A DNA stretch of 64,000 nt from Vicugna vicugna (lineage: Eukaryota): assembly GCA_013265495.1 (NCBI GenBank), contig MU058045.1, forward strand, positions 655,986 to 719,985, read 5' to 3'. Below the pieces are notes generated by a model that was given only the letters and a program-made list of their open reading frames with translations, did no database searches and had not been told where the DNA came from. Each line of letters starts with the position of its first letter. Positions within the stretch are counted from its first letter, which is position 1. Shown piece after piece: positions 6,101 to 9,100 of this stretch. Both the position numbers and the translations under genes were made by a program.

Positions 6101-9100
6101 CCGCACAGATAACCAGTCAGAATACTCAGTGGGATCAGAGGAGGAGGATGAAGACTTTGATGAGCGTCCTGAAGGTGACATCTGTTTTCCTGACGTTCTC
6201 CCACACCTCTTCCCATTTCACTTCCCGTTGTCTTTTAAGTACACTGTTCTTAGACGAATAAATGCTTTTTTCTGTAGAAAAAGTAAAGAATGCAGGCAAG
6301 CAAAAAAGAAGAAATATTCATAACCTTGCCACTGTTAAAATATGGAGTATATAACCATGCAGTCTTAGACACCTAGATGAAAGATCAAGAAAGATACATC
6401 ATTCACACCCCTGCCTGTAACGTTGCTTATATGAAATAGTTGCTACCAACTTTTTAGTATGGCTTGAATCTTTTGAACCGACTGGATCAGTAGTTCTGAA
6501 TGTGCTGGGAAGAAGATTCCAGGTGCCACCAACCTGACACAGGCTTGCCTGTGTTCTGTGTCTTGTGGGAATGGGGTGCTAGAAAAGACAGGGTAGAGGA
6601 GGTGGTGGATCTGCTAACCAGGGCCACCATCTCCCCACCCAGGGCGTCGACAGTCAAAGAGGCAGCTCCGGAATGAAAAGGATAAGCCCCTGCCTCCACT
6701 GCTGGCTCGAGTTGGGGGCAACATTGAGGTGAGAGCTGGGCCCAGGCACCTGAGGGATCCCTGAGGAAAGAATGAAGGCCAGGGGACTGGAAACTGAGGC
6801 TGGGTCACTGAGGGTAGACGGGACCAAGAAATAAGATCCTGGACGTTCATCTCTCACTCCCACCTTGGCCCCATCTTCAGGTGTTGGGATTCAACACCCG
6901 TCAGCGGAAGGCCTTCCTCAATGCTGTCATGCGCTGGGGCATGCCACCGCAGGACGCCTTCACCACCCAGTGGCTGGTGCGGGACCTGAGGGGCAAGACT
7001 GAAAAAGAGTTCAAGTGAGTGTGGGTGATCCAGGGCTGAGCTGGATGGAAGGGTAAGAGCTTTGGGTGTTACTTTCTTTCTCTTGGCCACCATATGATGT
7101 GACCTTACTCAACTGATAACCATACTCCTTGCCAGACCACATCTGCCGGCTCAGTTTCCTGGGAGGTGGGCTAAGCCTGCCCCACCTTCCCTCACATGAG
7201 CCTAGAGCAGAGAGGCTAGGCTCCCTTCCACACAGGAGAGGCGGTTAAGACAGGAGTCTCGCCTCTGTTGTCCTTGCCTCACATTTGGCCACAGTAACCT
7301 GGCAGGGGAGCTGGTGGAAAGGATGAAGAGCTGACTGATGGTGCCTAAGAGTGAAGTGCCGAGGCCAAGGAGACCATGGAAATTCAAGAGGAGGGGCAGT
7401 GGGGGGTTAGGGTGTGGAGGGCTGGTAACAGTGAGATTCAGAGGCCCATGGAGGAGCTCTGGAGGCGCCCAGGAGTTTCGGGTTCACTAATCTCTATACC
7501 CCTGCATTGCCCTGTGCCCCTTTAAGGCTCTCCTAACCCGTCTCCCACCCCCATGCTCCTTAGGGCCTATGTGTCTCTGTTCATGCGCCATCTCTGTGAG
7601 CCCGGGGCAGACGGCTCTGAAACTTTTGCTGATGGGGTCCCTCGAGAGGGACTGAGTCGCCAGCAAGTGTTGACCCGCATTGGAGTCATGTCTCTCGTCA
7701 AGAAGAAGGTATCAGTCTTCTCCTCACCCGAAGAGTCAAGCTGGCTGCCTAGGCCCTGTGCCTCCTTTGCCTTGCGTGCCTAAATTCCAGACGCAGGCTG
7801 GTGCGAGATAAAGCAGAAGGGACTGGAACTTGCTGTGAGTCCAGTGCCTGGAGCTGATCCCTGTCCCTGCAACTCCCCCGCACCCTTTAGGTACAGGAAT
7901 TTGAGCATATCAATGGGCGCTGGTCTATGCCAGAGCTGATGCCTGACCCCAGTGCTGACTCTAAGCGCTCCTCCAGAGCCTCCTCTCCTACCAAAACGTC
8001 TCCCACCACTCCGGAGGCTTCTGCTGCGAACAGTCCTTGCACCTCTAAACCTGGTAATCAGCTTGGATGGTGGGAGAGACAGAGGGGACCAGTGTCCATT
8101 AGATACAGAGGGATTGGAGTTGGAGTTTCTGCCTTCACTCTGCCTTAACCTTGCAGCTACTCCAGCTCCAAGTGATAAAGGAGATGGCATAAGGACACCT
8201 CTGGAGAAGGATGAAGCAGAAAACCAAGAGGAGAAGCCAGAGAAGAATAGCAAAGTTGGAGAGAAAATGGAGACAGAGGTGTGTGGCTACCTGGCTCCCC
8301 CTGAGGGGAGGGAGTGGCAAGGTCTTGGAGGCAGGTCCTGGGAGTCCTCCACTTCAGCCTGACTCCATTGTCCTCTTCTAGTCTGATACTCCTAGCCCAG
8401 CCCCATCCCTTGGGGAGCGGCTGGAACCAAGGAAGATTCCTCTAGAGGATGAGGTACCAGGGGTACCTGGAGAGATGGAGACTGAACCTGGGTACCGGGG
8501 GGACAGAGAGAAGTCAGGTGGGTGAATGGCCTTTGGACTGATGGGGGGCTGAGAATTTGGGAGTTCCCTCTTTGAGGGTCAGGGGATGAGGGTGACATCC
8601 TCCCTTCCTGTCCCTTACCCCCTCCCACAGCCACAGAGTCGACGCCAGGAGAGAGGGGGGAGGAGAAGCCGTTGGATGGACAGGAACACAGGGAGAGGCC
8701 GGAGGGGGAGACAGGGGATTTGGGCAAGAGAGGTAATGGGTGGAAGGACTGGACTGGACACCTGGGTCCCTGAGGGAATCAGGGGAGGTGGAGTCTGGGG
8801 AACCAAATGCCTGTATCCTGGGTGGGTAGCCGTTTCAAGGGCCAGTACAGTACAGAGAGTAGTCGCGGGATCTGGGAGGAGACTGTCTCCTGAGGTGTGA
8901 GCTCTGCCCCATCTGCCGTAGCAGAAGACGTAAAAGGGGACCGGGAGCTTCGACCTGGGCCTCCCAGAGATGAACTGCGATCCAACGGGCGACGTGAAGA
9001 GAAGGCAGAGAAGCCGCGGTTCATGTTCAATATTGCCGATGGTGGCTTCACAGGTAGGGGGAGTTTCTCACTGCCCCTTGCTCCTCACTGGGGTTTGCTC

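Follow-up and report, generated by a model that had tools for sequence, protein, structure and literature searches.

Background

An H/ACA domain nested in a C/D frame is found in SCARNA10/U85, as well as in U87 and U88, which target U5 and whose host genes differ from that of SCARNA21 (ACA68), an RNA of the same composite type that has been ascribed to U12. U85 guides the modification of the adjacent U5 residues C45 and U46 (PMC6984369). Intron-encoded processing, binding of both sets of core proteins and targeting to the Cajal body are established biology of composite scaRNAs (PMC4041459). The host of human SCARNA21 is CHD3 (PMC4914119), and its form embedded in a C/D frame was found by northern blot to be the prevalent one in human, although no target could be predicted for the C/D portion (Kishore 2013, PMC4053766). 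Jorjani 2016 (PMC4914119) then predicted guides for U12-17 and U12-18 in their own numbering, which correspond to G18 and U19, remarked on the adjacency of the two residues, and described the two predictions as conserved in 17 and 24 eutherians, the range given being that of therians. In Xenopus, Deryusheva 2019 (PMC6984369) reported a 245-nt RNA with H/ACA and C/D parts, verified by northern blot and with U12-G18 and U12-U19 as targets, listed a short and a long form in the same table, and found scaRNA21 of this organism to be inactive at U2-54 in yeast.

Both residues are mapped modifications of U12, Gm18 and psi19, the latter equivalent to psi34 of U2 in the branch-site helix, and Gm18 appears without a guide in the table of a 2021 review (PMC7960923). 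In the available parts of that review and of the three papers on SCARNA21 (Kishore 2013, Jorjani 2016 and Deryusheva 2019) there is no guide or loss-of-function assay of this RNA on U12, and those of PMC8053127, PMC8763049 and PMC3884663 contain nothing on U12 guides or Mi-2. Two further human RNAs are of relevance here: SCARNA21B, in an intron of DNAJC16, shares the H/ACA family and the U12 pocket but is listed as H/ACA only, without the C/D frame, and SCARNA11 (ACA57), the guide for U5 psi43, is listed as a plain H/ACA RNA in an intron of CHD4, a paralogue of CHD3 (PMC4914119).

Results and discussion

Host gene and H/ACA domain

The window, that is, the whole stretch of DNA that was analysed, comprises 64,000 nt of contig MU058045.1 of Vicugna vicugna. 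The RNA and its surroundings were resolved into the following features:

6881..7014, + strand: upstream host exon, CHD3-type, PF06461 positions 33-74 (domain match, splice sites)
7015..7563, + strand: host intron encoding the RNA, GT-AG, phase 2 (splice sites read from the sequence)
7088..7092, + strand: terminal stem, 5' arm (fold)
7094..7100, + strand: box C, final A replaced by U, forming a k-turn with box D (motif)
7103..7111, + strand: D' guide, 9 bp to U12 nt 15-23, +5 base (7108) opposite G18 (duplex with the published U12 probe)
7113..7116, + strand: box D' (motif)
7147..7286, + strand: H/ACA domain, Rfam SCARNA21 (RF00602), full model (covariance model)
7148-7202, + strand: hairpin 1 (fold)
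7155..7160, + strand: pocket 1, 5' strand, 6 bp to U12 nt 21-26 (duplex)
7172..7175, + strand: CAB-like motif UAAG in the loop of hairpin 1
7191..7194, + strand: pocket 1, 3' strand, 4 bp to U12 nt 15-18, U19 unpaired (duplex)
7204..7209, + strand: box H, 14 nt from pocket 1 (motif)
about 7211..7280, + strand: hairpin 2, with a lopsided pocket (fold)
7246-7249, + strand: CAB-like motif UAAG in hairpin 2
7281..7283, + strand: box ACA (motif)
7320..7326, + strand: box C', degenerate, one mismatch to the consensus (motif; same place in the Kishore alignment, by eye)
7327..7334, + strand: D guide region, short, 8 nt from C' to D, with a weak published prediction for 28S C4426
7335..7338, + strand: box D (motif)
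7339..7343, + strand: terminal stem, 3' arm (fold)
7564..7709, + strand: downstream host exon, PF06461 positions 75-122 (domain match, splice sites)

The two exons encode consecutive parts of PF06461, which places the RNA in an intron of a CHD3-type gene, as is the case for SCARNA21, and CHD3 is favoured over CHD4 and CHD5 because of the identity of the flanks with the rows of the human CHD3 locus in the published alignment (PMC4053766, Additional file 7). About 20 exons of this host, corresponding to Mi-2 residues 676-1874, were located by tblastn on the + strand between positions 615 and 11599 of the window, and an Rfam scan of their introns rendered no other snoRNA at the gathering score. 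The choice of paralogue leans also on residues distinctive of CHD3. Farther along the window there are five weak tRNA matches (33-50 bits; 47948-48020, 52118-52189, 54898-54967, 56575-56646 and 57655-57726) that are alike among themselves, four of the five being tRNA-Ala(AGC) by ARAGORN; they are probably heads of a tRNA-derived SINE, which presumably resembles the camelid Vic-1 family.

The match to RF00602 covers positions 1-140 of the 140 of the model and scores 132.1 bits, against a gathering score of 60 (E 4.5e-29), and the core alone folds with a z of -2.76. Both hairpin loops read UAAG, so that the AG of the CAB consensus ugAG (PMC4041459) is kept and the full consensus is not. In the fold, the pocket of hairpin 2 has 11 unpaired nt on its 5' side and almost none on its 3' side.

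The C/D frame and its conservation

The H/ACA domain is enclosed, between positions 7088 and 7343, by boxes C, D', C' and D, with one mismatch each in C and C', by a terminal stem of 5 bp (7088-7092 with 7339-7343), and by a k-turn whose pairs are formed by boxes C and D and in which, as read from the sequence, the variant last base of box C has a Watson-Crick partner. The terminal stem and the two hairpins are all formed in the minimum free energy fold (z -2.27; 4 of 200 shuffles were as good). Outside the frame, the intron flanks 7060-7087 and 7344-7362 pair with each other and would lengthen the terminal stem by about 13 bp, in a way that resembles the external stems aiding the processing of C/D RNAs. 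The mature 5' end is predicted at about 7089-7090, and the start of expression of the human RNA, 59 nt 5' of the core, falls on 7089 if there is no indel (PMC4914119). The predicted length of the RNA, about 256 nt, is similar to the 259 nt between the expression ends of human SCARNA21 (PMC4914119). A preliminary description of this DNA, made from the letters alone, had proposed a SCARNA21-like composite with a C/D frame around a two-hairpin H/ACA domain, and the full-length match, the position of the boxes and the fold bear out both the identity and the architecture.

Compared by eye with the alignment of Kishore 2013 (PMC4053766), the C box, guide and D' box of the window are those of the human, rhesus, dog, elephant and opossum rows; the mouse row differs at the unpaired base before D', so that this part of the C/D flanks is nearly identical in six therian rows, and in the Xenopus row the three elements are recognisable. 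The segment from C' to D equals that of the human and elephant rows, the D guide being altered in those of mouse and dog. With the elongated human SCARNA21/ACA68 the window RNA shares the host gene family, the architecture, the box variants, the D' guide and pocket 1, and it departs from it in species-level substitutions in the linkers and in hairpin 2, the loops being UAAG. The long form of Xenopus, compared in sequence by the alignment rows only, is of the same type and has the same two U12 targets. SCARNA11/ACA57 shows no resemblance to the window RNA. The RNA is an ordinary mammalian copy of SCARNA21 and as such already known. It had been anticipated in the preliminary description that it would be conserved rather than new and easily under-annotated, which agrees with the long form published for human and Xenopus, with an Rfam model that covers the 140-nt core only, and with the guideless entry for Gm18 in the review table.

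Pairing with U12

The U12 sequence was taken from the antisense U12-Gm22 probe of Bizarro 2021 (PMC8336889) instead of from vicuña U12. This probe spans nt 14-27 of U12 if its first DNA residue faces G22, a register adopted because the U2 and U5 probes in that list point to a first DNA residue placed opposite the methylated base. On this register, the D' guide forms 9 bp with U12 nt 15-23, its fifth base facing G18, a residue known to be methylated, as the +5 rule demands, and pocket 1 forms 4 bp with nt 15-18 and 6 bp with nt 21-26, leaving U19 and A20 free 14 nt from box H, within the 14-15 nt expected of SCARNA21. The register on which the preliminary description had based its two targets (nt 15-23 for the D' guide, methylation of G18 and pseudouridylation of U19) thus agrees with the published probe, and G18 is the target predicted in print as well. 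From its adjacency to U19, we take G18 to lie within the branch-site recognition stretch. The 9-mer of the D' guide is not unusual by itself, since 0.69 occurrences are expected in 64 kb and it was found in 50 of 100 shuffles; shuffling the intron 20000 times, by contrast, gave a single case of a 9-nt complement to U12 whose end adjoins a D-type box or lies 1 nt short of it.

It could be argued that only the 140-nt H/ACA RNA is functional, the C/D flanks serving processing or stability while some other guide acts on G18. The annotation in Rfam and HGNC comprises the core only, the Xenopus table includes a short form beside the long one (PMC6984369), and the D' duplex is short, its 9 bp counting against a guide function, with no direct assay found in the literature consulted. 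Nevertheless, the long form prevails in the human northern blot (PMC4053766), the D' guide is conserved from human to opossum and almost unchanged in Xenopus (by eye), as it is in the mayfly-like locus described below, where it reaches 11 bp, and no other guide is assigned to Gm18 in the review table (PMC7960923). We therefore regard a function restricted to the core as quite improbable.

The opposite possibility is that the RNA carries four working guides, with pocket 2 directing psi83 of U6atac and the D guide Cm4426 of 28S, since Jorjani 2016 (PMC4914119) did predict U6atac-83 and 28S-4426, for the two positions that the preliminary description had left without a target, and the C'-D segment of the window is unchanged with respect to the human and elephant rows (by eye). 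However, these predictions are weak (ICI 0.11 and 0.71, respectively), that for U6atac-83 is poorly conserved, and 28S-4426 is already served by its known guide SNORD49 (PMC4914119). Moreover, the fold leaves pocket 2 hardly open on the 3' side, only 8 nt separate C' from D, and the D guide differs in the mouse and dog rows. Because of the lopsided pocket and the short C'-D distance we give low weight to the extra targets; four active guides appear unlikely, and pocket 2, like the D guide, is probably either weak or not needed.

We estimate at roughly 0.9 the probability that the window RNA is the orthologue of the long form of SCARNA21/ACA68 (about 255 nt) and a guide for Gm18 and psi19 of U12. 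As such, it would be transcribed within the CHD3 pre-mRNA, and the spliced intron would be trimmed to the terminal stem and the C/D k-turn, as in the known pathway of intronic snoRNAs. The RNA would bind both core sets, fibrillarin and dyskerin, and could be transported to the Cajal body by means of its CAB-like loops and WDR79; the D' guide would direct 2'-O-methylation of U12 G18, and pocket 1 pseudouridylation of U12 U19. Since the two guides need overlapping stretches of U12 (15-23 versus 15-18 plus 21-26), they would have to act in turn on one U12 molecule, and their presence in one RNP may plausibly order the two reactions, as has been proposed for SCARNA10/U85 on U5. Multi-guide RNAs are said to prevent interference between nearby sites, and an ordering has been argued for U85 and for guides of U2 (PMC6984369). 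As for psi19, an H/ACA RNA in chicken CCT6A has been predicted for U12-19, and together with SCARNA21B, which has the same pocket, it implies that psi19 may have other guides as well.

A mayfly-like locus with the U12-G18 guide

When metagenome contigs were scanned for the motif of box C, guide and D', at least 120 loci were obtained, the pattern being too loose: 74 of the 120 loci listed lie within open frames of at least 100 aa, which indicates that they are mostly due to chance. No nhmmer match to the H/ACA core was found among the 120, of which only 73 have at least 320 nt of downstream sequence, and there is no mammalian orthologue among them. One of them, L003 (contig Ga0114940_10008070), has exons 79-87% identical to those of the window and belongs to the same gene family. 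For its upstream exon, the identity to Mi-2 is 97% with Cloeon dipterum and 96% with Neocloeon triangulifer, both baetid mayflies, and at most 84% with the other matches listed. When full-length Mi-2 was compared with 127 listed motif loci, L003 was the sole close match, three others showing 19-24% in the helicase region. The RNA of L003 lies in an intron (659-1023) with Mi-2 exons on both sides, at the coding position which in the window is occupied by intron 6729-6880, the one preceding the SCARNA21 intron; at the position of the latter L003 has no intron. The elements of its frame are as follows:

L003:694-957: C/D RNA candidate, 264 nt, with a 5-bp stem
L003:700-706: box C, canonical
L003:932-938: box C', one mismatch
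L003:949-952: box D

The guide of L003 forms 11 bp with U12, two pairs more than that of the window, with G18 at +5, and all five k-turn pairs are present. The canonical box C, the extra guide pairs, C', D, the k-turn and the stem are features outside the search pattern, and among the 120 loci listed only L003 combines a box C, a stem of at least 4 bp and the strict pocket motif. Since the guide itself had served to find these loci, its score against shuffles in L003 (4/20000) is circular, and it is therefore the host gene that provides independent evidence: in L003, as in the window, a C/D frame with a D' guide for U12-G18 is found in an intron of the CHD3/4/5 family. Clear similarity between both sequences is limited to the C box, the guide and D'. 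We consider it likely that the C/D half of SCARNA21 has a true homologue in the insect locus L003.

The consensus of snR71 in Rfam has nearly the same stretch of C box, guide and D' as the window (7094-7116) and L003 (700-723), a likeness that may be due to chance or to common descent with an rRNA guide. If the D' guide were a relic of a guide of the snR71/SNORD29 type, or doubled as one, it might serve rRNA instead of U12, and snR71, with near-identical C box, guide and D', is indeed the top-scoring among the weak Rfam C/D matches of L003 (18.1 bits, E 2.5). That score is, however, far under the gathering score of 60, the pairing with U12 is perfect over 9 bp in the window and 11 bp in L003, and the window RNA carries a second guide for U12. 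An rRNA guide in place of a U12 guide seems to us exceedingly improbable.

The insert of L003 is different from that of the window, RF00602 giving no match at E 10, and Rfam as a whole, at this cutoff, nothing other than weak C/D matches. A strong first hairpin (z -4.53) is followed by an H-type box (789-794) and by a weak second hairpin (z -1.39), and the slot for box ACA (870-872) reads UCA. The letters of a U12-psi19 pocket are present (6+4 bp), but this candidate was discarded, as it has no upper stem and its forced-open fold is 5.7 kcal/mol worse than the optimum. In hairpin 2, an open 6x6 loop forms 6 bp with G37-U42 of U5 and leaves U43 free, the probe used reaching 1 bp of the other side. 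The same pocket letters are found in the 3' pocket of human SCARNA11, which guides U5-43 and has CHD4 as its host (PMC4914119, PMC6984369), although L003 has no match to its model RF00564 at E 10. The U5 pocket motif, noticed after the fact, was found in 251 of 20000 shuffles, and the apical loop 837-845, which, one deletion apart, carries the C/D-type CAB consensus of Drosophila, is likewise an after-the-fact motif (138 of 10000 shuffles). Given this fly-type CAB, the RNA could equally well be a plain insect C/D scaRNA or a composite.

Only tentatively, as a reading of low probability, do we suggest that the U12-G18 guide may be an ancient bilaterian resident of Mi-2/CHD introns whose C/D frame takes an exchangeable insert, so that SCARNA21 (CHD3) and SCARNA11 (CHD4) would stem from one ancestral Mi-2 guide set split between the paralogues after duplication. 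As part of the same suggestion, the frame of L003 would enclose two hairpins, the second with a U5-psi43 pocket of the SCARNA11 type and a fly-type CAB. These proposals draw on one contig and on motifs noticed after the fact.

Mi-2 and motif searches of viral and genome contigs rendered no second insect locus. None of 25 candidates in viral contigs was a Mi-2 locus, and the seven loci of the viral motif scan lie outside Mi-2. In the Mi-2 search of genome contigs, three of 47 were retained, two of them weak bacterial matches and the third an intronless animal-type Mi-2 coding sequence without guide (L123:1-5411), on a 6.3-kb contig of a bacterial MAG and 59% identical to Cloeon Mi-2 over residues 144-1945, which is likely a eukaryotic transcript contaminant. 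A pattern scan of viral contigs also gave two U12-like loci, neither of which matches the U12 model of Rfam. An invertebrate homologue was not found in print, which is weak evidence of novelty, as the survey consisted mostly of titles and beginnings of abstracts and excluded subscription papers, FlyBase and snOPY.

Some other pattern loci have features of their own. Eleven AT-rich loci (L015, L019, L034, L040, L052, L055, L072, L087, L096, L111 and L113), related to one another at 68-100%, have in common a box resembling C, the complement to U12-G18 and a box of the D type, and in some of them more C/D-like motifs follow. The group has the appearance of a snoRNA cluster of a eukaryote, by impression a plant, and the five members scanned have no Rfam snoRNA match. 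L020 and L044, 95% identical, carry a box C, a 12-nt U12 complement, a D' box and, some 45 nt further on, another D-type box, without an Rfam snoRNA match, and represent a possible compact C/D guide.

Conclusions

The vicuña locus in itself holds little that is new, being a further mammalian example of an RNA already in print, of which Rfam overlooks the C/D half. One RNA would install both Gm18 and psi19 in the region of U12 that pairs with the branch site, and this may affect minor-intron splicing. If confirmed, the mayfly locus would extend the guide from tetrapods to insects and predict an unmapped Gm18 in insect U12, and it would be an example in which guide modules had been redistributed among the introns and paralogues of a single host gene family.
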